DNA of 64,000 bases from assembly GCF_030013205.1 (NCBI RefSeq), contig NZ_CP122648.1; one strand, written 5' to 3'. Source of the stretch: Escherichia coli (GTDB lineage Bacteria; Pseudomonadota; Gammaproteobacteria; Enterobacterales; Enterobacteriaceae). This document shows, one piece after another, positions 19,318 through 36,015 of the stretch. A program made the position numbers and the translations under genes. Within the stretch, counting starts at the first letter, position 1. Each line of letters opens with the position of its first letter. Below the pieces are notes generated by a model, which was not told the origin of the DNA, made no database searches, and saw only the letters and a program-made list of their open reading frames with translations.

Positions 19318-19458
19318 TTACTGCTTACACTGTAAGAACGCCGCAAACTCCGCTCCCCAGAATCTCATCCGTATTTCGCACAGCGAACCGTGCAACATCC
19401 AGATGATGAGGATTGCCGTCACGCAGAACGTGATGGCCGTAAGCGATTTTTGCGACAT
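19318..19458 (-). CDS. Hok/Gef-family type I toxin (46 aa)
   Basis: MSQKSLTAITFCVTAILIIWMLHGSLCEIRMRFWGAEFAAFLQCKQ: single TM helix then SLCEIR..R....E.AAF signature shared by Hok/Gef/HokA; below the ORF-track size cutoff; coordinates hand-derived. Confidence 0.7.
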   Translation of the reverse strand: MSQKSLTAITFCVTAILIIWMLHGSLCEIRMRFWGAEFAAFLQCKQ

Positions 19459-19648: not shown

Positions 19649-19909
19649 TTAATTTTGAGGTAAGGGCAAACTCATCTGATTGTTTCCTTTGTGTGAAGCT
19701 GGCAGTTCATGCCACGGGATACCTTCTGAAGAGTGAGCGCCGGAGGCGTGTTTCGATGTGAATTTATGGAAAGCTTCCAGTGTTGAGAAGCATACACCGC
19801 ATTCTAGGTTGTTACATTGGTAATACTTTTGCCGCACGGTGTTTGAATCATTTTCCGGACGACTGGTGCGGATTCGGGCAGATGCGCCACAAAGCGGACA
19901 ACGGAACAT
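19649..19909 (-). CDS. ogr: Ogr/Delta-family zinc-finger late-gene activator (P2 Ogr-like)
   Basis: MFRCPLCGASARIRTSRPENDSNTVRQKYYQCNNLECGVCFST...: CxxC ... CxxxxC pattern and spacing of P2 Ogr. Confidence 0.8.
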   Translation of the reverse strand: MFRCPLCGASARIRTSRPENDSNTVRQKYYQCNNLECGVCFSTLEAFHKFTSKHASGAHSSEGIPWHELPASHKGNNQMSLPLPQN

Positions 19910-20119: not shown

Positions 20120-20434
20120 GTGGTTGCTGATCATGAATATTTGTATTGGAAGATAATTGCAATGAGCGAAAGAGTGTTTGAGAAAGAACTATATTCTGAA
20201 TGGGTTATACGCAATAGTCTATATTGGATGACTCCGCTTACTCGATGGAAACTCCATGAAGACGTTTCCCACTGGATAATCTCTTTTGAAAACGATAATC
20301 CCAAATTCCTTTATGAATTCGATAGGCTGCTTAATGATTACTCTTTGCGAGAAAAGCTACAGCATAAAACAGGGGCGTTGAGAGACTCTATTGTCCATAA
20401 AGTGCTTCGCAGTGTTGATGAGAGGCTTTCATAA
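20120..20434 (+). CDS. hxsD: His-Xaa-Ser system protein HxsD (LLNDYxLRE-motif protein)
   Basis: 104-aa ORF containing ...FDRLLNDYSLREKLQHK...; stop overlaps hxsB start (TAATG); true start may be the internal ATG near 20162. Confidence 0.7.
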   Translation: MVADHEYLYWKIIAMSERVFEKELYSEWVIRNSLYWMTPLTRWKLHEDVSHWIISFENDNPKFLYEFDRLLNDYSLREKLQHKTGALRDSIVHKVLRSVDERLS

Positions 20435-21822
20435 TGGAATTGATGCCATTTAATTTTGACAGATTGCCTAATGGACAGGTGTTTATAAGCAACCTTGCAG
20501 GTTTTCATCATTTCATTGGTGAGCAAGACCTTATTGATCTTTCTGATGAGCGAATTAGTTCGGAGCAATCAAACGTGCTAGAAAGTAAGCTTTTCATAAC
20601 CAGTGAAAGCTCATCTGCTATAACTCCCTATGCTTTAAGTTCTGCTTTTGCAAAACGATTGATGAATGAACTGGCTGTCAGGCCAATTTTCATGATTGTA
20701 CCCACATTACGTTGTGACCATACATGCAAGTATTGCCAGGTTAGTAGAGCTTCTGTTAATGCCTCAGGTTACGACCTAAATCCTGAGCTCATCCCCGATA
20801 TTATTTCGGCTATTAAAAAACTATCAACGCCACCTTACAAAATAGAGATACAGGGTGGGGAGCCTCTCTTGCGGTTTGATTTAATTCAGAACATCTATGA
20901 TCAATGTGCTGAAACGCTGGGAAGAACCAATTTTGAGATGGTGGTGGCATCAAGTCTGTCTGTCTTGAATGAGGATATGATTGAATGGTCGAGAGACCGG
21001 AACATAACGTTCTCTGTGTCGCTTGATGGTGAGGAAGTTGTTCACAACAGTAATCGAATTCTTGGTCGTGGGCTTGCGTACAGTAGAACAGTGTCAGGGG
21101 TAGAGGCTATCAAACACTCTTTAGGTGCTGGCCGCGTTGCAACGGTTACTACAGTTACTAAAGAGCTTATCAGACGTCCTGAATCGATTGTTCAGGCTCA
21201 CTTGTCTCTTGGGCTCAAGGACATGTTTATCCGACCTGTTAGTCCCTATGGGTTTGCACAAAAAGCTTCTTTCACCTTTTCTATGGACGAATACTTCAGC
21301 TTCTATGCCTCGTTGATAGATGAAATCCTTAAGATTAATAATGAAGGGATAAGGGTTGTGGAACATTCGGCCTCCATTCATCTGAAAAGGATCTTCAATC
21401 CCGGTTTTAGTGGCTATGCGGATTTAAAGTCTCCAAGTGGAGTCGTGCTTAACAGTATTCTTTTCAATTATGACGGTCGAGTATATGGTAGCGATGAGAG
21501 CCGTATGTTGCAGAAGGTGAATCCTGAAACGGAGTTCAGTGCGGGTGAAGTTAAGACGCTATCATTTTCTGATAGTCCTTACTATAACGCAGTATTGACT
21601 TCATCGTTCAATTTTGCTCTGCCAGGTTGTGATACATGTGCATATCAACCATTTTGTGGTTCAGATCCATGCCAGAACATAAGTGTACAGGGTGAGCCTG
21701 TCGGCGATAGGAGTCGTTCAACGTTTTGTCAATATCACAAGGGGATGTTCAGGTATCTGATGAACTGCATCTCAGAGGGTGGTTCGAAGGCTGAGATGCT
21801 AAAAGGATGGGCATATGTCTGA
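20434..21822 (+). CDS. hxsB: Radical SAM / SPASM-type maturase, first of the pair (HxsB-like)
   Basis: 462 aa; CxxxCxxC in ...PTLRCDHTCKYCQVS...; C-terminal Cys cluster ...LPGCDTCAYQPFCGSDPCQNI...; overlaps the neighbouring genes. Confidence 0.8.
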   Translation: MELMPFNFDRLPNGQVFISNLAGFHHFIGEQDLIDLSDERISSEQSNVLESKLFITSESSSAITPYALSSAFAKRLMNELAVRPIFMIVPTLRCDHTCKYCQVSRASVNASGYDLNPELIPDIISAIKKLSTPPYKIEIQGGEPLLRFDLIQNIYDQCAETLGRTNFEMVVASSLSVLNEDMIEWSRDRNITFSVSLDGEEVVHNSNRILGRGLAYSRTVSGVEAIKHSLGAGRVATVTTVTKELIRRPESIVQAHLSLGLKDMFIRPVSPYGFAQKASFTFSMDEYFSFYASLIDEILKINNEGIRVVEHSASIHLKRIFNPGFSGYADLKSPSGVVLNSILFNYDGRVYGSDESRMLQKVNPETEFSAGEVKTLSFSDSPYYNAVLTSSFNFALPGCDTCAYQPFCGSDPCQNISVQGEPVGDRSRSTFCQYHKGMFRYLMNCISEGGSKAEMLKGWAYV

Positions 21823-22927
21823 GGTTATCAGGAACGATATCTTTCATTTTGCTTCTACAGAGAACGTGCCCACGGGGTTCTATCGGTTATGCAAACAAAA
21901 ACCAGTGAACCCTTTATTCTTTTTGCCCAATTTGCTAGTAGTTGCTGAGGGCAATAATGATGCCATTCCACCATGCTTTGATTTCTCTGTTATTAGCACT
22001 GAATTATTTGAGTCAATTGAAGATGGAGATATTGGGATAATCAACAATGGCAATATGATACGCGTTATTCTGTCACGCAAAGCCAACCATAATACTGTCT
22101 TAGTTACGGAACGCTGCAATAACTTGTGTCTGTTTTGTTCGCAGCCACCAAAGAAAATAAATGATGACTGGCTACTTACCCAATCAGCTCTTGCTATAGC
22201 TTCATTTGGCTTGAACGGAGTTGTTGGGGTCAGCGGTGGTGAACCTTTGCTATATGGGGATGACTTCCTTCACTTCATTGATTTTATCATCGAGAATTCA
22301 CCAGATACTGCTTTACATGTTTTAACAAACGGACGCAAATTTGCTGATACCAACTTTACACAGGAAATGGCAAAGCGAAGCAAAAAGATCAAAATCACCT
22401 TTGGTATCCCGCTCTACTCATCAAGACCACTTGTGCATGATCATCTGGTAGGGAGTGATGGCGCATTTAATGAAACGGTTAAAGGGTTAATCAATGCAGG
22501 AAACTTGGGGATTAATATCGAACTTAGAGTTATTCCTACACTGGCTAACTATACCGAATTGGATGATATCGTAGAATTCGCTGGCCGTGTGTTCTCCAAC
22601 ATCAATCAGATTTCCCTTATGGGGTTGGAGCCTATCGGTTGGGCACGAAAAAACTGGTCCACCATCTTCATTGATCACAGTAGTTATAGTGAGAAAATAA
22701 TCTCTGCCATAGACGCTGCATACAGGTCAGGCATACCTCTGACAATTTTTAATTATCCTTTGTGTTATCTTCCTGAAAGGGCTAGGGAGCTTGCTGTTCA
22801 GTCGATCTCTGATTGGAAAAATTACTATCCAAAAGAATGTGATGAATGTACTCAGAAGCCTTCCTGTGCTGGCTATTTCAGTTCCTCAAAAGGCCGTTTT
22901 CATCAATCACCGAGACCAATTTTATGA
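21815..22927 (+). CDS. hxsC: Radical SAM maturase, second of the pair (HxsC-like)
   Basis: 370 aa; CxxxCxxC in ...VTERCNNLCLFCSQP...; C-terminal Cys-rich ...CDECTQKPSCAGYF...; 8-nt overlap with hxsB, ATGA overlap with hxsA. Confidence 0.8.
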   Translation: MSEVIRNDIFHFASTENVPTGFYRLCKQKPVNPLFFLPNLLVVAEGNNDAIPPCFDFSVISTELFESIEDGDIGIINNGNMIRVILSRKANHNTVLVTERCNNLCLFCSQPPKKINDDWLLTQSALAIASFGLNGVVGVSGGEPLLYGDDFLHFIDFIIENSPDTALHVLTNGRKFADTNFTQEMAKRSKKIKITFGIPLYSSRPLVHDHLVGSDGAFNETVKGLINAGNLGINIELRVIPTLANYTELDDIVEFAGRVFSNINQISLMGLEPIGWARKNWSTIFIDHSSYSEKIISAIDAAYRSGIPLTIFNYPLCYLPERARELAVQSISDWKNYYPKECDECTQKPSCAGYFSSSKGRFHQSPRPIL

Positions 22928-23559
22928 AAAAGTTTAATTTTGCTGCTCTACTTCCGGGATTTTTGGCTCTCAACAATTCTGTATGGGCAAGCGATTCATC
23001 TACAGGAGCGAGTGATTTACCTGGTATGACTCTTAATGAGCATGATTTAGTGATAGCTCCACTTAACACGGAAGTCCCATTTTATATCGCAGGGCATCGA
23101 AGCCATAGTTCTCATAGGAGCCATAGCTCTCATAGATCCTCATCAGGTGGTGGATACTATGGTGGAAGTACCCCCTATTATCCAAAAACATACAGCTCAC
23201 CAAGTTCATCTGGTTCTTCAAGTTCAGGTGCAAGTTCCTCATCGTCCTCTTCCTCGGTGCGTGCACTTCGTTCTAACGATAATAATAGAACCACTAACAC
23301 GAGTTCTGTTGGAACTTCAGAGGTTAACCGTACGAGTAATGGGCTTGCTTCTGATGCAGAGAAACGTAAGCGATTGATTATGCGAGTTCAGTTCGCATTG
23401 CTGGACAGGGGATTTTATAACGGAAATATTGACGGCATAATGGGGCCATCCACAAGGCTGTCTGTGAAAAATTACCGCATTGCGAATGGATTACCGATTC
23501 CTGCAACTGAAACACTCGACGCACAATTGTTAAATTCTTTGAATATATTAGCTCGCTAA
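22924..23559 (+). CDS. hxsA: His-Xaa-Ser repeat protein (HxsA-like), secreted, with peptidoglycan-binding-like C-terminal domain
   Basis: From internal ATG of track ORF 22846..23559: MKKFNFAALLPGFLALNNSVWA (signal peptide), HRSHSSHRSHSSHRS (5 HXS repeats), Ser/Gly-rich linker, C-terminal ...RVQFALLDRGFYNGNIDGIMGPSTRLSVKNYRIANGLPIPATETLDAQLL. Confidence 0.8.
   Translation: MKKFNFAALLPGFLALNNSVWASDSSTGASDLPGMTLNEHDLVIAPLNTEVPFYIAGHRSHSSHRSHSSHRSSSGGGYYGGSTPYYPKTYSSPSSSGSSSSGASSSSSSSSVRALRSNDNNRTTNTSSVGTSEVNRTSNGLASDAEKRKRLIMRVQFALLDRGFYNGNIDGIMGPSTRLSVKNYRIANGLPIPATETLDAQLLNSLNILAR
23097..23135 (+). repeat. Short in-frame tandem DNA repeat encoding the His-Xaa-Ser units
   Basis: agccatagttctcatagg / agccatagctctcataga-like 18-nt units; coordinates approximate. 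Confidence 0.6.
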
Positions 23560-23861
23560 ATCTCAGTGAGGTATAAATAAAAAGCAATAAATTATATTAG
23601 TCGCGCGTCCATTATTGGTGGGTAAGTTCAAGGACCGTCTGCTCTGTGTCAGGGGCAGATGGTCAGATAAGACTGTGCCGTTTAGCCCGCTAGTACGTGT
23701 CTGGACTAATACATTTAAGAGTCTCATTCTGCTATCCATTCCGGGATTTTTGCCTCAAGCTCAAGCTGTGTGGTAAAGCCGCTGTTATCAATGGTGTGCT
23801 CGGCTTTTGCAATAATCCAGTCCTGATTATCAATCTCGCTTTTAAATCCTGTTACCGTGCC

Positions 23862-23869
23862 ATGCATTT
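23862..23869. repeat. Target-site duplication (left copy) of the IS66-family element
   Basis: ATGCATTT, repeated at ~26569-26576. Confidence 0.7.
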
Positions 23870-23899
23870 GTAAGCGACTCGTCAGAACCGTATTGATAT

Positions 23900-25471
23900 T
23901 TACTGAGAGCTCAGATCAACTTTCCAGGGCAACAGATCGCGTACCCGGTTTGCCGGCCAGTCCTGGATATGTTCAATGACGTAACGCAGCCACTTTTCTG
24001 GCTCCACATTGTTCAGACGGCATGTGCCGATCAGCGAGTACAACACCGCCGCATGTTCACCACCGCTGTCGGAACCCGCGAACATCCAGTTTTTCCGGCC
24101 TACGGCCACTCCCCGTAAGGCGTTCTCTGCGGTGTTGTTGTCGATTTCCACCCAGCCATTACTGCAGTACACGTTCAGTGCATCCCACTGTTTCAGCAGG
24201 TATGCGAACGCTTTTGCCGTATCTGAGTGACGCGACAGTGTTTTCATCTGTTGCTGTATCCAGTCATACAGTGACTGCATCAGTGGCGCGGCTCTGGCTT
24301 TTCTTGCCGCCAGACGCTGTTCTGCTGAACAGCCCCGGACCTCTGCCTCGATGGCATACAGTTCACCGATACGCTGCAGGGCTTCCGTGGTGATGTAGGT
24401 GGGCGCTCTTGCATGCACATCGTGGATTTTTCTCCGGGCATGAGCCATACACGCGGCTTCCGTTATTCTGCCGGATTCGTATAACGCCCGGTAACCACCG
24501 TAAGCATCGGCCTGAAGCACACCGCTGTAACCGGCCAGGTGATTTTGTGGATGGATACCTTTCCGGTCCGGACTGTACGCGAACCAGACCGCCGGGGGCA
24601 TCTGTGAACCGGCGTTACGGTCATCACGGACGTAGACCCACAGCCGGGCTGTCCGGGTTTTACCGCTGCCCGGCTCCTGGACCGGGACGGGGATATCATC
24701 AGCATGGACTTTACCGGGCATCAGCACATACTGGCGCAGGACGTCATACAGCGGCTCCAGCAGTTCAGCAACAGCACCTGTCCAGCGCCCCAGTGTGGCA
24801 CGGCTCAGCTCCACTCCCTGACGACGGTATATTTCTGACTGGCGGTATAACGGCAGATGGTCTGCATATTTCCCGGTGACAACATGGGCCAGAAGCCCCG
24901 CTCCGGCATAACTGCGTGCAATGGGTTTTGAAGGTACTGGTGCCTGTACGATATGGTCGCACCGGCAACAGGCCTGTTTCGGACGTTGTGTTTCGATAAC
25001 CTTAAAGGCGCTGCTGATAAGCTCCAGTTGCTCTGACACATCACATCCCAGAGAACTGAGTTCACCACCACAGGCAGGACAGCATTCCTCTTCCGGCCGG
25101 ATAACCCGGGTTTCACGGGGAAGTGAGGCCGGTAACGGTTTACGGGCTGAAGACTGGCGCAGGGCGGATGGCAGTACCGGGTCATATTGCTCACCCAGCG
25201 TTTCCGCCATTTCTTCCTGAAGTGCGCTGATTCGCTCCTGTGCTTCCTGTATCTGCCGTTCGGTTTTTGCACGAAGTTTTTCTGAGCTTTTACCGAACTG
25301 CATACGTTGCAGTTTCGCAACCAGCGCCTTCAGCCGGTTGATTTCGGAAGCATAAGCCGCCACCCGCTGTGAGAGCAGGCGGTTGTATTCAGCCATCTGG
25401 CGGATGGTGTCCTGTTGCGTCTGCAACAGTGCCCGCAGGCGGGCGTTCTCATGAGCAAGTGAGGTGTCCAT
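23900..25471 (-). CDS. IS66-family transposase TnpC
   Basis: 523 aa with leucine-zipper-like N-terminus, Cys cluster (CPACGG...CRCDH) and C-terminal ...[23 protein letters not shown]... typical of IS66 TnpC. Confidence 0.85.
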
Positions 25472-25490
25472 ATCCTCACTTTACAACGGG

Positions 25491-25838
25491 TTATATGCGG
25501 ATTCCAGCGCGTTCCGTTCGTTTCGGGTGCTTCCAGTTGATACCTTCAAGAAGCATGGATAACTGAGCCGGAGTAAGGTGCACCTTGCCGTCACGGGTGA
25601 CTGGCCAGACGAAGCGGCCCCGCTCCAGGCGTTTGGTGAAGAGGCACAGTCCGTCACTGTCAGCCCACAACACTTTTATCTGGTCACCCCGGCGTCCGCG
25701 GAAGATGAACAGGTGTCCGGAGAACGGGTCATCCTTCAGGACGTTCTGAACTTTTGATGCCAGGCCGTTAAAGCCATTTCGCATATCGGTGATACCTGCA
25801 ACCAGCCAGATACGCGAACCTGCAGGGAGAGATATCAT
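25491..25838 (-). CDS. IS66-family accessory protein TnpB
   Basis: 115 aa, ...RIWLVAGITDMRNGFNGLASKVQNVL... Confidence 0.8.
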   Translation of the reverse strand: MISLPAGSRIWLVAGITDMRNGFNGLASKVQNVLKDDPFSGHLFIFRGRRGDQIKVLWADSDGLCLFTKRLERGRFVWPVTRDGKVHLTPAQLSMLLEGINWKHPKRTERAGIRI

Positions 25839-26515
25839 CAGTGGCTGCTCCCTTTTATTTCGCGGATAAGTGTCTGTAATAACGCCGGCGTCAGTTTACC
25901 TTTAAGCCTGAGAGTTCCGGCCGGCAGAACCAGCTCACAACACAGACTGTCGGACGGTGTATTTATCTGCTCTGGTTCCTGTGCGGGGGCCGGGATTTTA
26001 TTATCCGGCTCCGGCGTTAACGTCACGGGAAGCAGTGCCGGCATATTTTTTCCGGAAGGCAGCAGGCCACCTTTCCGGTATTGATGGCGCCAGTTGAAGA
26101 GCAGGTTATCGTTGATTCCGTTTTCCCGGGCGATCTGCGCCACACAGGCTCCGGGCTGCAGTGACTGCTCCACTAAGGCGATTTTAAACTCATAAGGGAA
26201 GTTGGGCCGCCGGGGACGTTTTTTTACCACGGGGGCTTCGGATATAACGGTGCTTTCAGGACGTACGACTGGTACCGTGGAAAATTGTCCGTAAAGGCAG
26301 GCATCAAGTTCCTGCTCCGACATGCCTGCGGGCAAAGGCCACGAAAGGCCAGCTCTCCGAAAGCGCACGAACATACTACAAACTGTTGATTTTGGTACAC
26401 CCAGGCGACGCCCGGCCACAACCCGGGGTAAATGTTCTTCAAAGTGAAGACGTAAAGCTTCAGTGATCCAGGTCCGGTGTTTCATACGATAGTGTCCATT
26501 AAAAATGATGGACAT
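25838..26515 (-). CDS. IS66-family accessory protein TnpA (start uncertain; track ORF may be over-extended)
   Basis: ...RPRRPNFPYEFKIALVEQSLQPGACVAQIARENGINDNLLFNWRHQYRKGG... Confidence 0.65.
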   Translation of the reverse strand: MSIIFNGHYRMKHRTWITEALRLHFEEHLPRVVAGRRLGVPKSTVCSMFVRFRRAGLSWPLPAGMSEQELDACLYGQFSTVPVVRPESTVISEAPVVKKRPRRPNFPYEFKIALVEQSLQPGACVAQIARENGINDNLLFNWRHQYRKGGLLPSGKNMPALLPVTLTPEPDNKIPAPAQEPEQINTPSDSLCCELVLPAGTLRLKGKLTPALLQTLIREIKGSSH

Positions 26516-26568
26516 TATTTTTGTAGAGCCGGAGGAAACAGACCAGACGGTTTAAATGAGCCGGTTAC

Positions 26569-26576
26569 ATGCATTT
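26569..26576. repeat. Target-site duplication (right copy) of the IS66-family element
   Basis: ATGCATTT. Confidence 0.7.
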
Positions 26577-27266
26577 CGGGGTAGAGTTCTGCACGCCCAC
26601 GTGCCAGCGTGATGGAAAATGATGCGGCTCCGCGTTGTAGCTGCTGCCACTTTGCCGCCGCTGCGCGTCTTGCTGCCTGCTCGTTCTGATAAGTCTTGCG
26701 TAACACAAACACATTGCCTTCCGCACCTTCCATATAATCACCTTCACGGCTGCTGCTTTTCTCCTTTTTAGGTTTTGGTGGTTTGCGGCGTTTCACACTG
26801 ACTTTTTTCTTTTTCCCGTAATTAAGATCAAGCCAGTAAGCGCGTACCCCCGTATACGCTTCGCGGTCAGCAATGCGGAACTGATGGCGATCGCCGCTGT
26901 TGCGCGTGATGGCGAACGATGGCAACGGCTGGCCCTGTGCGTTCACGCCACCGCCTGGCATGATGAATAACAGATTATCGCTTTTTACCGTGGTGATTGC
27001 GCCCAGCATTTCCGCCATGCGCGTAAGGAAGGACATGTCGCTTTCTTCGGTCTGGTCGGCGTGGTCGATTTCGATATCCATCAGCATTTCGCTGATTTGC
27101 GGTTTCAGGCCGTACCGATGAGCGATGGCGGATACCACACGCTCAACGGTCACATCATGCCAGGACACCTCACGTTTAACGTTAAATTCATCCCGAAAAT
27201 CTGCGCTTCTGGCTGAAACAGTCAGCCTGTCCGGCGGTCCTTCGTGAGCGATTTCATCAACAATTA

Positions 27267-27685
27267 GACTGGCCCCCTGAATCTCCAGACAACCAATATC
27301 ACTTAAATAAGTGATAGTCTTAATACTAGTTTTTAGACTAGTCATTGGAGAGCAGATGATTGATGTCTTAGGACCGGAGAAACGCAGACGGCGTACTACA
27401 CAGGAAAAGATCGCTATTGTTCAGCAGAGTTTTGAACCGGGAATGACGGTCTCCCTTGTTGCCCGGCAACACGGTGTGGCAGCCAGCCAGTTATTTCTCT
27501 GGCGCAAGCAATACCAGGAGGGAAGTCTTACTGCTGTGGCCGCAGGAGAGCAGGTCGTTCCTGCCTCTGAACTTGCTGCTGCCATGAAGCAGATTAAAGA
27601 ACTCCAGCGCCTGCTCGGCAAAAAAACGATGGAAAATGAACTCCTTAAAGAAGCCGTTGAATACGGGCGTGCAAAAAAAGTGGAT
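27267..27685 (+). mobile_element. IS2 left-end fragment (IRL plus 5' part of insC/orfA), truncated near IS2 position ~416
   Basis: TAGACTGGCCCCCTGAATCTCCAGACAACCAATATCACTTAAATAAGTGATAGTCTTAATACTAGTTTTTAGACTAGTCATTGGAG... then Ins[57 protein letters not shown]...[10 protein letters not shown]; homology ends just after the A-run; remainder of IS2 absent. Confidence 0.8.
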
Positions 27686-30247
27686 ACAGTGCTCAGCGAA
27701 AAACAACAAAAGCTGATGCAGCAGTTAAGCACCCGGCTTGAACGCCTGAATGAATCGCGCACACGGGAAATTCAGAAAATGCGGGAGCTTGGCGGAGAGC
27801 TGAAACGCCACGGCATTTCCCTGACAGGCAGCGATAACACCATCCAGCAGGCCATCAGACGCACCGAACAGTACAACAACCAGCTTGAACGCGAACGGCA
27901 GGCGCTTGCGCGTGTAACACGGGCGCGTGAGCGGTATTCGCGCGCGCAGGAAACAGCGGGAAAACTGAAAACAGGTGGTGCGCTGGCAATTGGTGCGGCA
28001 ACGGCGGGCGGCTATGCTGCCGGGCGTTTTTTGCAGCCTGCGATCGGGTTCGGCAAAGAGATGTCCCGCGTTCAGGCACTGACGCGAATCGACAAAAACA
28101 GCCCGCAGTTTAAGGCGCTGCGTGAGCAGGCGTTAAAACTTGGCTCTGAAACACAGTTTACTGCGAGTGATGCCGCCAGTGGGCAGAGCTTTCTGGCAAT
28201 GGCTGGTTTTACTCCGCAGGCCATTCAGGCCGCATTGCCCGGTGTTCTTAATATGGCGCTGGCAGGTGGCGTCGAACTCGGCGAGACGGCTGATATAGGC
28301 TCCAATATCCTCACACAGTTCAACCTGACAGCCGATCAAATGGACCGTGTTGGCGATACGCTGACAGCAGCATTCACCCGGACCAATACTGATTTACGCG
28401 CGCTGGGCGAAACCATGAAGTATACCGGTCCGGTTGCCGCAAAACTTGGTATCAGTCTTGAAGAAGCGGCGGCCATGGCCGGGATGCTTGCCAATAATGG
28501 TCTTCGCGGAAGCGATGCTGGTACGGCCATGCGCGCAAGTCTGTCCCGCCTTGCATCACCGCCAAAAGCTGCGGCTGATGCACTGAAAGAGCTGGGGGTG
28601 TCAGTTGCTGACGCCAGAGGCAAAATGCGCCCGATGGAGGATGTGCTGCTTGATCTCTATAAGGCGACACAAAAATACGGACAGGTGGACCAGGTTTCCT
28701 TCTTCAAGGACATCGCCGGAGAAGAGGCGTTCGTTGGTTTGCAGACGCTTGTTGCGGCGGCTGGTTCAGGAGAGCTGCAAAAACTGACCAGAGAATTGCA
28801 GGGGGCAAGGGGAGAGGCCGATCGCGTCGCAAAAGTAATGGCCGATAATCTTGATGGGGACCTGAAAAATCTCGACAGCGCATGGGAAGGTCTTCGTATT
28901 CGCATCAGTGATCTGGTTGACGGTCCGCTGCGTTCTGTCACGCAGTGGCTCACGCGGGTGCTTGAAAAAATCACCTCGCTGGCGCAGGCCCATCCGGTAC
29001 TGACGCGCCAGCTACTGATAGCAGGCGGTGCGTTGCTGGCAATGACTGCAACGATTGGCTCGTTGTCGCTGGTTATTGGGGTGCTTTACGGGAAGCTGGC
29101 CACCCTGCGTCTTGGTTTTGACATTCTTACCCGGTCAATGAATGTCGTCAGGGTGTTGCCTGCGCTGTGGGGAATGGTGACGGGTTCCGTTTCTTTACTG
29201 GGAGGCGCCATCGGGGCGTTGTTCAGTCCGGTTGGTCTTATCGTGGCTGCGCTTGCCGGAGCTGCCGTTCTTATCTGGAAATACTGGGATCCCATCAGGG
29301 CATTTTTTGCCGGGGTGTTCAGCGGGATTATGGAAAGGCTGACCCCGTTGCGCGAAACCTTTGAACGGTTTGGTCCTGTTTTTGACACAATCGGAAGCGG
29401 GATCAGCCAGGTGTTTAACTGGTTTAAATCGCTGCTGTCACCGATGGAGTCCAGCAAGGAAACGCTGGATAAATGTACCAGTGCTGGCGAGATATTCGGT
29501 AACGTTCTTGGCGGTGCGTTACAGCTTGTTCTGACACCTGCAAAAATGCTACTGGATACGCTGGCGTGGATACTTGAAAAACTTGGCGTCCTTCCGGATG
29601 AAGCGGAAAGGGCGCGCAAGAAAATCGAAGACGCACAGCGTGCGGCCATTCTTCAGGACAAGGTTGCCTTGCTTCAGGGTGACCTGGCGAAAATCAATCC
29701 GCCGAAGCCTGTGGAAAATGGCAATGGCACCGGAGGTAATAAACCCAAAGACAACAAACCGCTCACAGACAGCAATACCGGGACGCTACGCAGACTCAGC
29801 AAAATTGCTGATAACACAGGTAAGCTGGTTGATGAGACGAAAAAACGCATTGGCCCCGGCGATATTGTCTTTAAGAACCTGCCCCGCGCACTTGCTGTTC
29901 GTGGAGAGTGGCAGGAGCGGAAGATTGCGCAGGTCAGTAAGCCTGCCCCCGCAATTAATATCACACCCGTGGTCCCGGCTCCGCTGCCTCCGGCGCTGGT
30001 CCCTGTTGTTGCGGCCAGCTCCCGCCCGGTGGCGGAGGCCATACGATCTCCAGTGGCATCAGTTCCTGTAACTTCCCGTAACCGGGAGCCTGTTGCCTCC
30101 GGATTTGGTGGTGAAATTCATGTTCATCTGCATAACGTTGTTACGCAGAATCCCCGCGAACTGGCGAAACTGGTCGGTGAAATGGTCAGGGCAGAAATGG
30201 AACGGCGCGCCCGTGCCGGGCGTGGCAGTTTTTACGATAAAGATTGA
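27356..30247 (+). CDS. Chimeric ORF: IS2 InsC N-terminal ~110 codons fused in frame to a P2 gpT-like tail tape measure protein
   Basis: Track ORF 27311..30247 (978 aa); after ...EYGRAKK the sequence continues as tape-measure-like (..[71 protein letters not shown]..). Confidence 0.75.
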
Positions 30248-30253
30248 GGAGTC

Positions 30254-30748
30254 ATGGCCATGATGATGATCTACGGCATGTTTGTTTTTGAGCTGCGCAC
30301 GCTGCCGCATCAGCAGTTACAGCAAAACAAAAGCTGGCGGCATGTGAAAAATGAACGCGTTAACCGTTCAGCAAGCTGGCAGTATATCGGTGCAGGTGAT
30401 GATCGCATCGTTCTTTCTGGTATGCTTTATCCTGAAATTACAGGTGGCGAAGTGTCGCTGTCGCTGCTGACCACGCAGGCGTATACAGGACGCCCCTGGC
30501 CTCTTATTGATGGCGTCGGGCAGATTTACGGCATGTATGTCCTGACCGAAACGAATACGACCCGTTCCGAGTTTGATCGCTACGGTAAGGCGAAAAAGAT
30601 AGAATTTTCACTGACCCTTGAACGCTGTGATGAGGATTTGCGGGAGCGCCTGCAATCCTCATCGTTCAGCGATATGCTGTCCGGCTTCAAAGATAAAGTG
30701 ACATCATCCCTTAACAGCGCGGCCAGTTCAGTTAAAGGGCTGTTCTGA
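30254..30748 (+). CDS. P2 gpU-like tail protein
   Basis: MMMIYGMFVFELRTLPHQQLQQNKSWRHVKNERVNRSASWQYIGAGDDRIVLSGMLYPEITGGEVSL... resembles P2 gpU (MMVLGMFVFELRT...). Confidence 0.8.
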   Translation: MAMMMIYGMFVFELRTLPHQQLQQNKSWRHVKNERVNRSASWQYIGAGDDRIVLSGMLYPEITGGEVSLSLLTTQAYTGRPWPLIDGVGQIYGMYVLTETNTTRSEFDRYGKAKKIEFSLTLERCDEDLRERLQSSSFSDMLSGFKDKVTSSLNSAASSVKGLF

Positions 30749-32063: not shown

Positions 32064-33724
32064 TATGCAAGCCTCACAATATAATTAAATGCGATGTTTT
32101 TAACGGTGTTTTCCGCGTTACCAGCAGCGTTAACGGTGATGGTGTGTCCATGTGAACCAATCGCAACAGAGTGCGTATGAGCGCCAATACCAACAGTGTG
32201 TGCATGTGCCCCAGCACTTGTAGCGGTACCTGATACTGAGTGGGTATGTGCGCCAGAAGAAGGCACAGTTCCATTCCCCACCACCGTGCCACTTGATGCA
32301 CCATCAAGCCAGTCGAAATTCATACCTCCACTGTTTGGTCTCCTTAATGGAACGGTATGTGTATGTGCGCCAGCACTATTTGCAGTACCAGATACATTGT
32401 GGGTATGTGCACCAGTGTTATTCGTTGATTTAGTACCGTAATCAAACGACGATGTGGTTTTCGTACCCAAATCCGTACTGGATGCGCTGGCACTGTGGGT
32501 GTGCGATTTAATGCCATCCTGTTCCTGAGACAATACGGCCCGACCACTGGCGGGTTTGCCCTTGATTGTCCAGCCGCGCATATCTGGAATAACACCAGAA
32601 GGATAGGCAATAGCCAGTTTCGGATATGCTGCCTTATCAAACGTCTGCCCCTGCATGATTGCATAACCTGCAGGTGGCGTATCTGATGGCCACGGCAGCG
32701 GAACACCTGGCGGAAACGCTTCAATATTTGCCGAGCCGTCAAATTTTACGCCGTTAATTGTCCTTGCCGTTTTCAGCTTTGTTGCTGTAGCAGCATTGCC
32801 GGATAGTTCGCCAGAAAGACCACCGCTGAATGTCTGTTTCGCCGCCCATGTCTGAGCTTCGTCGATAATTGGCACACGTCTTGTCGTAATCGTGCGGCTT
32901 CCCGGATTTCCTGAAATGCGAACCATAAAAAAGCGGTAATTCGCTTTACTTGCAGTGCTGCGCCATACATGCATTGAGCGCCCCGTACCGAAATCATCAC
33001 TCGGACCAACTGCGATGTTTATCAGGTTGCCATCAATGACGCCCCAGTCCATACCGTCGGGAATATTGGTCATGTTATCAAGCCGAACGGTTATCAGACT
33101 GCCCGGCACAAAATCGTAGGTCTGCCAGTCCAGGCTGGTGAGTTTTGCCACTGCGCCACCGATCCCCATATTCAGGGGCAACGAAAAGGAGTTATACACT
33201 TCTCGCCATTCGGTCCATGTGCTCCCGGCGTAGACGCGCTCAAAAGTGCGCCCCTGTGTGGTTTCTGATTTCCCTGTGGTTGTGTAACGCTGCCAGACAG
33301 ATACACCATCAAAACGCCTGATTACTTCCAGTATCCCAAGCAATGTCGCCCCAGCAGCGTCCAGCATCGGACCGTTTGTCGCCTTTCCTGTAACACTGTA
33401 AATACCGGGGTCGGTTAGAACATTCAAATCACCTTCGTAATAACGGCTCTCTGACTGATGACCGACTCTTAACCACGGTTCCCACTGCGGATTTGATGCA
33501 TCCCAGCTTGCCGCAAGGCAGCGAACGTACATATTCCCACGACGAGTGGTATAACGTTGCGTTCTTCCATAATTCCCGCCTTCGAGGATCTCAAGCGTCC
33601 CCTGAGCAAAGCCGCCTTCCTCTGGATAATTGCGTTCATATGAAGCTATAGCCGAGCTACTGTTACGCCATAAACCAAGATGCTCAGCGGCTCCAAGCGT
33701 ATTCAGGTCTATAGTCGTACTCAA
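32063..33724 (-). CDS. Phage tail fibre protein
   Basis: 553 aa; ...[41 protein letters not shown]... and C-terminal His-rich repeats [38 protein letters not shown]. Confidence 0.8.
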
Positions 33725-34000
33725 AGGGCGGGTAGTTCAAGAAGCTGTTCCGGAGCGTTTGTTGATGATCCCGATCTGCATAAAAATATTCTTATTTGCT
33801 ATCCGTATGGTAACTATGAATATGACAATATTATCTATGTTGAAAAGAAAACTAATGCATTGGGCGTTGTTGTGACGTATGCACAGACTGCACGAGACGA
33901 TGCTGAATAAGATACTACAGAGATAGTCCACTTTTTTGTTTATTTGTCGGGATAAAAACAAATTACCCCGACTCACCATGTATTAATCTTCCGCTTTAAG

Positions 34001-34384
34001 TTAGTCTTGTAGCTGCGCTGTCCTGCTATGCAGCAAAGCGGCGTACTTTAATGCGTCCTGTGCTTTCTGGAATTTAAGTGCATAGTCAGTGGCGATTTTT
34101 TCCAGTTCAGCGATTCGGTTGTCTTTGGTTTCCAGCCAATCAAGTAGCGCCAATACTTCAGGATCCCCGACATCCAACACTGTTACGCGTGATTTTTCAT
34201 AATGTTCGTCGGCAAGAGTTCGACCAATTTTGAAATCTCCATCATCACCATAACCGGAGCAGCCATAAACAACCTGTGCTCCAGATATTCGCTGAATTGA
34301 CATTTCTTCGCCGCAAATAGGGCATTTTGGTACTGGTGCAGGTGAATAACGTTCACGTAATGCCTGATAGTTGATTTTGCTCAT
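34001..34384 (-). CDS. Hypothetical phage protein with CxxC zinc-ribbon-like motif
   Basis: 127 aa, ...PVPKCPICGEEMSIQRISGAQVVYGCSGYG...; no family recognised. Confidence 0.4.
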   Translation of the reverse strand: MSKINYQALRERYSPAPVPKCPICGEEMSIQRISGAQVVYGCSGYGDDGDFKIGRTLADEHYEKSRVTVLDVGDPEVLALLDWLETKDNRIAELEKIATDYALKFQKAQDALKYAALLHSRTAQLQD

Positions 34385-34642
34385 TAAGTCGCTCTTCTTG
34401 TTTATGTTCTGAGATGGAGATCAGGGCGAACTCGCCCTGACGTTGTGTTATTCAGGAAATAACGCCCTGATATTTCCGGCCATCTGACTGGTTATCTGTG
34501 CGGTTGGTACTGGCTGTGACAGGGGGCGTTCTGTCCTGGTTTGTGTCACTGATAACGCCTCATCGTCAGCCCATGCAGCCAGTCGGTAAGCCTCTGCCGG
34601 ATTCATTTTCAGAAGTGCCAGCCCGGCCAGAAAAGCCACGCG

Positions 34643-35221
34643 TTGGCCGCTTTTGCGGGCTTCCGGTGTAAGGCTGTCCAGCCAGGCGCATGCTTCGCTT
34701 TCGTTCTTGACGGCCGCAGGCTTCAGATAGAAACTTATCTGAGTAAGTCTGAATGTGTTCAGTTGCTGGATGCACTGGCTGAAAATCCCGATGAACGGCT
34801 GGCTGTCGAAATCCTTCTGTCGACCGGGGCGCGATGGGGCGAGGTAGCGGTACTGGAGCAGCGCCGTGTTCTTCATTGTCGAATCACTTTTTCAAAAACG
34901 AAGAACAGCAAAAACCGTACCGTTCCTATTTCTGAAAGCCTGTTTGAAAAGATCAAAAAACGGGGCGGGAAACTGGTGTTTCCGACGCTGGATTATCCAT
35001 TGGTTCGCGATGTCATCAAAACGGTCGCATCTGATGTTCCTGACGGCCAGGCTGTTCATGCGCTGCGCCACACCTTCGCCAGTCATTTCATGATGAACGG
35101 CGGCAATATTCTGACGCTCCAGAAAATTCTGGGGCACGCAAAGATTCAGACAACGATGATTTATGCCCATCTTGCGCCGGATTACTTGCAGGATGCGGTG
35201 AGATTTAATCCAATAGCTTGA
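34643..35221 (+). pseudogene. int: Tyrosine recombinase (phage integrase) C-terminal catalytic-domain fragment
   Basis: ...LSTGARWGEVA...NRTVPIS...HALRHTFASHFMMNGGNILTLQKILGHAKIQTTMIYAHLAPDYL (R, HxxR, catalytic Y); ~190 codons versus ~330 for full length; N-terminal domain not found in frame. Confidence 0.7.
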
Positions 35222-35231
35222 AGGTAGGAAA

Positions 35232-35615
35232 ATGAAAGATATTGAACATTCAGGGGAAATGGAAAAGAAAAAACGGGAGTTTATTAAAAAACTGGAATCG
35301 ATAACGCCAAGAGAATTCTTCCGTTTTTTAAATGAAAAAAACGTCACTGTGGTTTGCCTTGGGTGCGGACTGAAAGATACCCAGATAACTGCCACTACAG
35401 GTAAGTTAAATCTCCAACAACTCCTGGATGGTGAAAAAGGGGAAGAGTTTATGACGTACTTCAGGCTTGAACCAGGTCACCCAGGTGATAGTGATGCGAA
35501 TTATTACTACAAATCTTTTTGTGAGAACTGCGGTTATATAACTATGCATGCAGTGACTCCGGTATTGAACTGGTTGGGATCGCAAAAAAACCAGGAAGGG
35601 TCAGGTGATGAATGA
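35232..35615 (+). CDS. Hypothetical protein with two CxxC pairs (putative zinc ribbon)
   Basis: 127 aa; ...VVCLGCGLKD... and ...FCENCGYITMH...; start preceded by aggtaggaaaATG. Confidence 0.45.
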   Translation: MKDIEHSGEMEKKKREFIKKLESITPREFFRFLNEKNVTVVCLGCGLKDTQITATTGKLNLQQLLDGEKGEEFMTYFRLEPGHPGDSDANYYYKSFCENCGYITMHAVTPVLNWLGSQKNQEGSGDE

Positions 35616-35907
35616 GTATACTTATATCACGGGTTTTTCCATTCCGTATCCAGGAGGAATTCAGGTGAGCAATCGCAGAAGTCAGGCAAGTCGTGATGAG
35701 TTCGCTCTTGATAGCCGTGTTGCACGAATGGAGTCTGATATCTCATACATCAAGAGAGATATTGAAGAGCTGAAGAGCGATCTCAAGGATGTGAGAGGCG
35801 ATATTGATAAGATACGCACAACAGATTTCAGGCTCATGTTTGGTGCGTTGATTACTACAGCCTTGGGGTTAGCTGGCTTAATGGCGAGAGGTTTTCACTG
35901 GATTTAA
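35605..35907 (+). CDS. Hypothetical coiled-coil protein with C-terminal transmembrane helix
   Basis: 100 aa; ...ESDISYIKRDIEELKSDLKDVRGDIDKIRTTDFRLMFGALITTALGLAGLMARGF; overlaps previous ORF by 11 nt. Confidence 0.45.
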   Translation: MMNEYTYITGFSIPYPGGIQVSNRRSQASRDEFALDSRVARMESDISYIKRDIEELKSDLKDVRGDIDKIRTTDFRLMFGALITTALGLAGLMARGFHWI

Positions 35908-36015
35908 GATCCACAAAGTGACCACATCTCTGTTATTTGTTGTGGTTGGCTGTGTTTTTGTGTGTCTGTAAGTCTTTGATAATTATCTAACTTATTGATT
36001 TTTGTTTGTGTTTAT

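Follow-up and report, generated by a model that had tools for sequence, protein, structure and literature searches.

A complete ISCro1 element in a damaged tail gene D of a P2-like prophage remnant in Escherichia coli

The element and its ends

The 64-kb window, by which we mean the whole stretch of E. coli DNA analysed here, carries a complete 2,699-bp insertion sequence on the minus strand (23870..26568), lying within a phage tail gene D and oriented so that its genes run in the same direction as D. All three open reading frames of the element are intact and are the same as those of many other copies. The tnpC gene (23900..25471, minus strand) encodes a 523-aa DDE transposase, which matches the NCBIfam model NF033517 (transpos_IS66) with 478.2 bits (cutoff 180) and shows the Pfam architecture LZ_Tnp_IS66, zf-IS66, DDE_Tnp_IS66 (E-value 6e-103), and DDE_Tnp_IS66_C, marking it as an IS66-type TnpC. 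Upstream of tnpC and on the same strand are the genes for two IS66 accessory proteins, the 115-aa TnpB (25491..25838; NF033819, IS66_TnpB, 128.9 bits, cutoff 50) and the 225-aa TnpA with a helix-turn-helix (HTH) assignment (25838..26515; NF038385, IS66_access_TnpA, 295.8 bits, cutoff 150). As in other IS66 elements, tnpA and tnpB overlap, the tnpB start and the tnpA stop sharing base 25838 in an ATGA motif.

IS66-family inverted repeats are described as 20 to 30 bp long, starting with GTAAGCG and accompanied by 8-bp direct repeats (PMC11946415). The tnpC-distal terminal repeat GTAAGCGACTCGTCAGAACCGT (23870..23891) has the GTAAGCG start, and the tnpA-proximal repeat, read inward as GTAACCGGCTCATTTAAACCGT (26547..26568), shares 16 of its first 22 positions with it, so that the imperfect inverted termini GTAAGCG and GTAACCG reported in the first-pass annotation are indeed of the IS66 type (GTAAGCGACTCG... 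and GTAACCGGCTCA..., both with the GTAA start). The left boundary reads ...GTGCC ATGCATTT / GTAAGCGACTCG..., with the 8-mer at 23862..23869 and the element from 23870 onwards (with more context, ...CCTGTTACCGTGCC ATGCATTT / GTAAGCGACTCGTCAG...). The right boundary reads ...GAGCCGGTTAC / ATGCATTT CGGGG..., with the last base of the element at 26568 and the second 8-mer, read directly in the window, at 26569..26576 (with more context, ...TTTAAATGAGCCGGTTAC / ATGCATTT CGGGGTAGAG...). An 8-bp target duplication at both ends had already been noted, and it is exact: ATGCATTT occurs at only two sites in the 64-kb window, namely the two flanks of the element, and its reverse complement was not found in the window. 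In gene D the left copy covers part of codon E320 together with M321 and H322.

The repeat is formally 9 bp long, the C at 23861 in front of the left copy being the same as the last base of the element at 26568. This last C is part of the conserved ...CGGTTAC terminus and is present in every ISCro1 copy examined. Eight distinct plasmid sites of ISCro1, most of them AT-rich, show a duplication of 8 bp in seven cases and of 9 bp in one.

Over its full 2,699 bp the element is 100% identical to copies on E. coli chromosomes and plasmids that PGAP labels "IS66-like element ISCro1 family". It is a member of the IS66 family, and PGAP naming, length, and the literature assign it specifically to ISCro1. 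An ISCro1 of 2,699 bp (946022..948720) with the 8-bp duplication TTTTATCT has been listed inside a prophage (PMC6963479, table), an ISCro1 in ST131 is given as 2,824 bp (PMC8764528), and in Citrobacter rodentium ICC168, where the element was first named, it has expanded to 24 copies (PMC3072379). The window copy shares with ISCro1 the length of 2,699 bp, the tnpA-tnpB-tnpC order, the GTAAGCG/GTAACCG termini, and the 8-bp duplication, and shows no detectable differences from the copies that PGAP names ISCro1, only the insertion site being lineage-specific. Further IS66-family elements of E. coli, such as IS679, ISEc8, and ISEc22/23, likewise have three open reading frames, a DDE_Tnp_IS66 transposase, 8-bp duplications, and GTAA-type ends. 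These are distinct elements, whereas the window copy falls into the ISCro1 group at 100% identity; related but diverged plasmid matches are 76 to 95% identical to it.

Matches to the element were found in 2,657 of 5,426 complete E. coli genomes and on 1,993 plasmids, mostly conjugative, with up to 28 places in a single genome. At an identity of at least 99%, ISCro1 is present in 1,786 E. coli records and on 968 plasmids, the latter including plasmids of strains ETEC1748, ETEC6333, and ETEC6334, which also bear the chromosomal insertion described here. A known insertion sequence in a known kind of target, annotated in RefSeq relatives, is in itself an ordinary finding.

Gene D and the remains of the prophage

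The intact D homologue of E. coli E1739 has 367 codons, belongs to Phage_GPD (Pfam ID PF05954, E-value 3.6e-17) and to PHROG 52 "tail protein" (E-value 1e-165), and adjoins ogr and the tail genes FI-FII-E-T-U, in keeping with the P2 gpD/Phage_GPD baseplate hub, which is related to the VgrG protein of type VI secretion systems (T6SS). The window copy differs in that only codons 91 to 367 are left and these are split by ISCro1. The middle fragment with codons 91 to 322 (26569..27264, minus strand) is 99.4% identical to positions 9302-9998 of the E1739 locus, which we refer to as L002. The 3' fragment, taken from the list of open reading frames, covers codons 323 to 367 and the stop codon (23724..23861, minus strand; 23727-23861 without the stop) and lies in a region, 23000-23869 of the window, that is 100% identical to E1739; in the PGAP annotation of K_EC180 it appears as a hypothetical protein of 47 aa that starts at the duplicated Met321. 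An IS66-family element in tail gene D, as originally proposed, is borne out by the model scores above their cutoffs, by the 100% identity to ISCro1, and by the assignment of the intact homologue to Phage_GPD.

The minus-strand frame of D reads ...GRAELYPEMH on the right of the element and GTVTGFKSEIDNQDW... on its left, just as first described. Deleting the element and one copy of ATGCATTT in silico yields a continuous reading frame, ...AELYPEMHGTVTGFKSEIDNQDWIIAKAEHTIDNSGFTTQLELEAKIPEWIAE followed by the stop codon, with the end ...KIPEWIAE.

A second lesion lies further upstream in D. Homology between the window and all empty-site genomes ends at 27264, and at 27264/27265 gene D abuts the true left terminus of an IS2 element (TAGACTGGCCCCCTGAATCTCC... 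from 27265). The IS2 is truncated (27265..27686, plus strand) and comprises the left terminus TAGACTGGCCCCC... and the part of orfA that ends shortly after the A-run frameshift site, as seen from the NCBIfam match "IS2 repressor TnpA" (235.8 bits) and from alignments with a complete IS2 and with K_EC180. It is followed by the tape-measure gene T (27687..30247, plus strand; TIGR01760, tape_meas_TP901), which lacks its 5' end, starting from about codon 82, is 99.9% identical to L002 from 12945 onward, and is marked as partial by PGAP in K_EC180. The switch from IS2 orfA to T, at the equivalent of L002 12945, runs across a microhomology of 2 to 5 bp (GG·TA), the last 2 to 5 bp of the IS2 fragment being common to T. 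Compared with E1739, 2,946 bp of prophage are missing here, comprising D codons 1 to 90, the D/FI intergenic region, FI, FII, E/E', and 242 nt of the 5' end of T. About 5% of the positions of the IS2 fragment differ from canonical IS2, a divergence that may stem from a variant form of IS2 and not from age.

Two chimeric reading frames arise at these junctions. In the window, IS2 orfA is fused in frame to T, giving an open reading frame of 978 aa (27311-30247), but the fusion frame hangs on one extra A in the homopolymer at 27673-27679, which K_EC180 lacks (A6) and which is probably also missing from four other full-length genomes scoring 99.9%. On the other side, the open reading frame of 276 aa that holds the middle fragment of D (26515-27345) takes its 27 N-terminal residues from antisense IS2 and its 17 C-terminal residues from ISCro1, so that its apparent N-terminus "MTSLKTSIK..." is antisense IS2 and not D.

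The start codon of D and the region upstream of it are absent from the window together with codons 1 to 90 of the intact 367-codon allele. No Phage_GPD protein of full length is left among the tail genes of the window, the remaining codons being split after codon 322. Read against the E1739 allele, the window D is a doubly damaged pseudogene in a cryptic prophage remnant. The first-pass annotation had suggested that precise excision would restore the frame, and this holds locally, the frame being rejoined at the junction upon in-silico excision and retranslation. The product of precise ISCro1 excision would, however, be a D fragment (codons 91 to 367) with neither start codon nor promoter; because codons 1 to 90 were lost to the separate IS2-linked deletion, removal of ISCro1 would not revive D. 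The example cautions against equating an in-frame rejoining at an insertion sequence junction with the restoration of a gene. The significance is small beyond the annotation, in which a "gpD" open reading frame turns out to be a pseudogene.

In E1739, the P2-like prophage that lies between ihfA and btuC is complete, with integrase, replication genes, ParM, portal, terminase, capsid, lysis, baseplate, tail fibre, the FI-U block, D, and ogr. In the canonical P2 gene order, the FI-U block is not inverted relative to D, whereas in this prophage family it is. An IS2-mediated inversion, considered for the window since T and U face D, was rejected, as the arrangement in the complete E1739 prophage is likewise divergent, with D followed by FI-FII-E-T-U.

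The window is 99.98% identical to K_EC180 over 12.6 kb, and both have retained only hok, ogr, hxsDBCA, the remnant of D with ISCro1, the IS2 remnant, the truncated T, U, an acetyltransferase gene, a tail-fibre assembly gene, a truncated tail-fibre gene, a truncated integrase gene, and fragments of ead and parR-like genes. The window prophage lacks its genes for head, lysis, baseplate, and replication and has other large deletions besides that between D and T. Judged by this gene content, the prophage is a long-dead, heavily deleted remnant, in which ISCro1 is one of at least four lesions.

Empty sites, carriers, and the order of events

The junction excised in silico was used as an empty-site query against complete E. 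coli genomes and aligns as one continuous piece in 63 of them. In E1739 (L002 9289-9340), the site reads CCTGTTACCGTGCC ATGCATTT CGGGGTAGAG, with identical flanks and a single copy of the 8-mer (L002 9303-9310), matching the in-silico excision product exactly. The junction between ISCro1 and D is found at 100% identity in 14 complete E. coli genomes, all from swine, namely K_EC180, the O139:H1 strains W13-16 and P15-25, and eleven enterotoxigenic E. coli (ETEC) isolates. A further carrier is the assembly GCA_900450405.1, in which the same chimeric open reading frame of 276 aa adjoins ISCro1. The insertion is simple and clean and has been inherited by descent in this lineage, and an assembly artefact is excluded; the simple transposition event proposed at the outset agrees with the single-copy empty site in continuous alignment in the 63 genomes.

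ISCro1 is multicopy, and such repeats can misassemble or mediate rearrangements, which raises the question of whether homologous recombination between ISCro1 copies or a misassembled repeat, with coincidental 8-mers, might have produced the structure without any transposition. The chance of identical abutting 8-mers is 1 in 65,536 (1.5e-5), an exchange between copies would give flanks that do not match, and the flanks here are halves of a single gene, which the 63 empty-site genomes carry precisely joined with one copy of the 8-mer; the junction with the element is common to 14 independent complete assemblies and one NCBI assembly. We consider an origin without transposition at this site to have a negligible probability. 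It is also very improbable that the interrupted locus would still act as a functional unit, in which read-through from the IS2 end into the D remnant would drive ISCro1 via the tnpA start, or in which the fusion of InsA and T would be expressed. The stop codon of the 276-aa open reading frame does overlap the ATG of tnpA by one base (TAATG, 26513-26517), and the InsA-T reading frame of 978 aa is continuous in the window, but that frame requires the additional homopolymer A absent from K_EC180, and all phage partner genes are missing.

Taken together, the locus was almost certainly shaped by a single transposition of ISCro1 into D and an independent IS2 lesion, both in a P2-like prophage remnant, and no observation speaks against the ISCro1 insertion itself. 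An intact ISCro1 would have transposed once into D between codons 322 and 323, in the prophage between ihfA and btuC, and staggered cleavage of the target followed by gap repair would have created the 8-bp ATGCATTT duplication, as suggested by the duplication seen here and by the behaviour of the family. The likely donor is an identical ISCro1 copy, carried on a conjugative plasmid or at another chromosomal site in the same swine-associated lineage; the plasmids of carrier strains hold the element and are thus plausible donors. IS2 would have entered D between codons 90 and 91, and an illegitimate-recombination deletion of about 3.9 kb would then have taken most of IS2, the 5' end of D, FI, FII, E/E', and the 5' end of T; the breakpoints are seen in the alignments, and we infer the order of these two steps.

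The 14 genomes with the junction of D, IS2, and T are the very ones that have the ISCro1 junction. Among complete genomes, no intermediate allele was found, that is, neither the D-IS2 junction without ISCro1 nor the reverse. The hypothetical 304-aa product expected with IS2 only gave no record in an exact look-up that did find the 276-aa control, a result that does not prove absence. Both lesions always co-occur and no intermediate is seen, so that their distribution neither orders them nor dates the insertion. Somewhat short of an even chance is given to a history in which ISCro1 was the first, inactivating hit on a still-functional D or prophage, ahead of the IS2 insertion and deletion, and would mark the onset of decay. 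Strains MS1657 and F344, which carry ISCro1 in an otherwise intact D with FI to T intact, speak for such an order, but no genome with the insertion at the ATGCATTT site keeps the 5' end of D, both lesions sit in the same 14 genomes, and ISCro1 is 100% identical to many copies whereas the IS2 fragment is about 5% off canonical IS2.

The insertion had also been called probably recent and helpful in dating the decay of the prophage. The perfect duplication and the 100% identity to other ISCro1 copies favour the first part, but the insertion is fixed in a lineage of at least 14 complete swine genomes and one further assembly; these features show only that it is evolutionarily young, yet older than the diversification of the lineage. 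The dating value is weak, given that the ISCro1 and IS2 lesions share the same 14 genomes with no intermediate and that the prophage has other large deletions. As a clonal marker, the ISCro1 insertion together with the D-IS2-T junction cleanly identifies a swine-associated lineage of E. coli (O139:H1/ETEC isolates).

Other ISCro1 insertions in gene D

Independent, co-oriented ISCro1 insertions in D were observed in two other strains, both with FI to T intact. In MS1657 (chicken, USA), the duplication is TTGTAGTT(G) at L002 9369-9377, and in F344 (France), it is GTTTGCGG at L002 9514-9521. Together with the site of the window (L002 9303-9310), the three ISCro1 sites in D span 219 bp and belong to unrelated lineages. 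Tiling queries that joined the end of the element to successive chunks of D gave no further co-oriented ISCro1 in the next 560 bp of D; this survey covered co-oriented ISCro1 within D, from about codon 40 onward.

About 80 complete genomes carry this D allele. For two hits beyond that of the window in the 282 bp queried at first, among about 78 carriers, a rough Poisson calculation gives P values from 4e-5 to 0.02, a range set by the values assumed for copy number and for the neutral target fraction. This is suggestive of a hot spot but subject to ascertainment bias and the non-independence of the genomes. The 3' third of D is only mildly more AT-rich than the average of the locus, and this AT-richness cannot by itself account for three hits. 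A GTAAGCG 7-mer in D (L002 9570), considered as an attractor that mimics the end of the element, was rejected, since the 7-mer has four occurrences on one strand of the 19-kb locus.

That the 3' third of P2-like D is a regional hot spot for ISCro1 is a tentative and rather doubtful proposal. If true, it would point to a target selection by IS66 elements beyond a simple preference for AT-rich DNA, or to recurrent selection for the inactivation of D. The possible hot spot is the sole point of wider interest at this locus, given how poorly target choice by IS66-family elements has been characterised.

The IS2 fragment and the tape-measure gene

The tape-measure gene of the remnant has lost its 5' part and is joined to a truncated IS2 (window 27265-27686), which retains its true left terminus and orfA as far as the frameshift A-run. 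This IS2'-T' fusion takes the place of 2.9 kb of prophage, comprising the 5' end of D, FI, FII, E/E' and the 5' end of T. The A-run at 27673-27679 is A7 in the window versus A6 in K_EC180, a near-identical relative, and in canonical IS2, and the truncated orfA product is therefore continuous with the tape-measure sequence in an uninterrupted ORF of 978 aa, InsA'::T' (27311-30247, plus strand). Seven of the 14 related swine genomes are 100% identical to the window across the IS2'/T' region. In two of the 14, ETEC4068 and ETEC4075, the match to window 26950-27950 ends at about 27767, indicating a putative extra rearrangement within the truncated tape-measure gene.

Further losses, tail-block orientation and cargo

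Comparing L005 947-4105 with L006, a locus of the E. coli E1739 prophage, reveals more large deletions in the remnant at window 33724-36000. The integrase is cut down to about 459 bp, repressor through parM and portal through the baseplate genes are missing, and the N-terminus of the tail-fibre gene has been lost.

In this P2-like prophage family, the FI-FII-E-T-U tail block sits in inverted orientation with respect to both D/ogr and the H/G tail-fibre genes, so that D and FI are transcribed divergently. The inversion is also present in the apparently complete E1739 prophage (L002 9165-16011, and L006), the window counterpart being 27687-30748. The gene order of canonical P2 differs from this arrangement.

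The His-Xaa-Ser radical-SAM system hxsDBCA (20162-23559, plus strand) is cargo placed between ogr (19649-19909, minus strand) and D, and is still intact in the remnant, in contrast to the decayed structural genes. The prophage end carries a hok/gef toxin gene (19318-19458, minus strand).

ISCro1 in gene D

Two more, independent ISCro1 insertions, each with its own duplication and oriented as in the window, are found in gene D of MS1657 (L004 3571-6269) and F344 (L018 ~2571-5269), at 66 bp and 211 bp, respectively, from the window's ISCro1 site. Both correspond to the gene D portion at window 26569-26850, and gene D may be a regional hot spot for ISCro1 insertion.

At the TAATG of window 26513-26517 (minus strand), the stop of the chimeric truncated-D ORF shares one base with the tnpA start codon; read-through translation entering ISCro1 would therefore end exactly at the tnpA start. 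This overlap is probably a coincidence.
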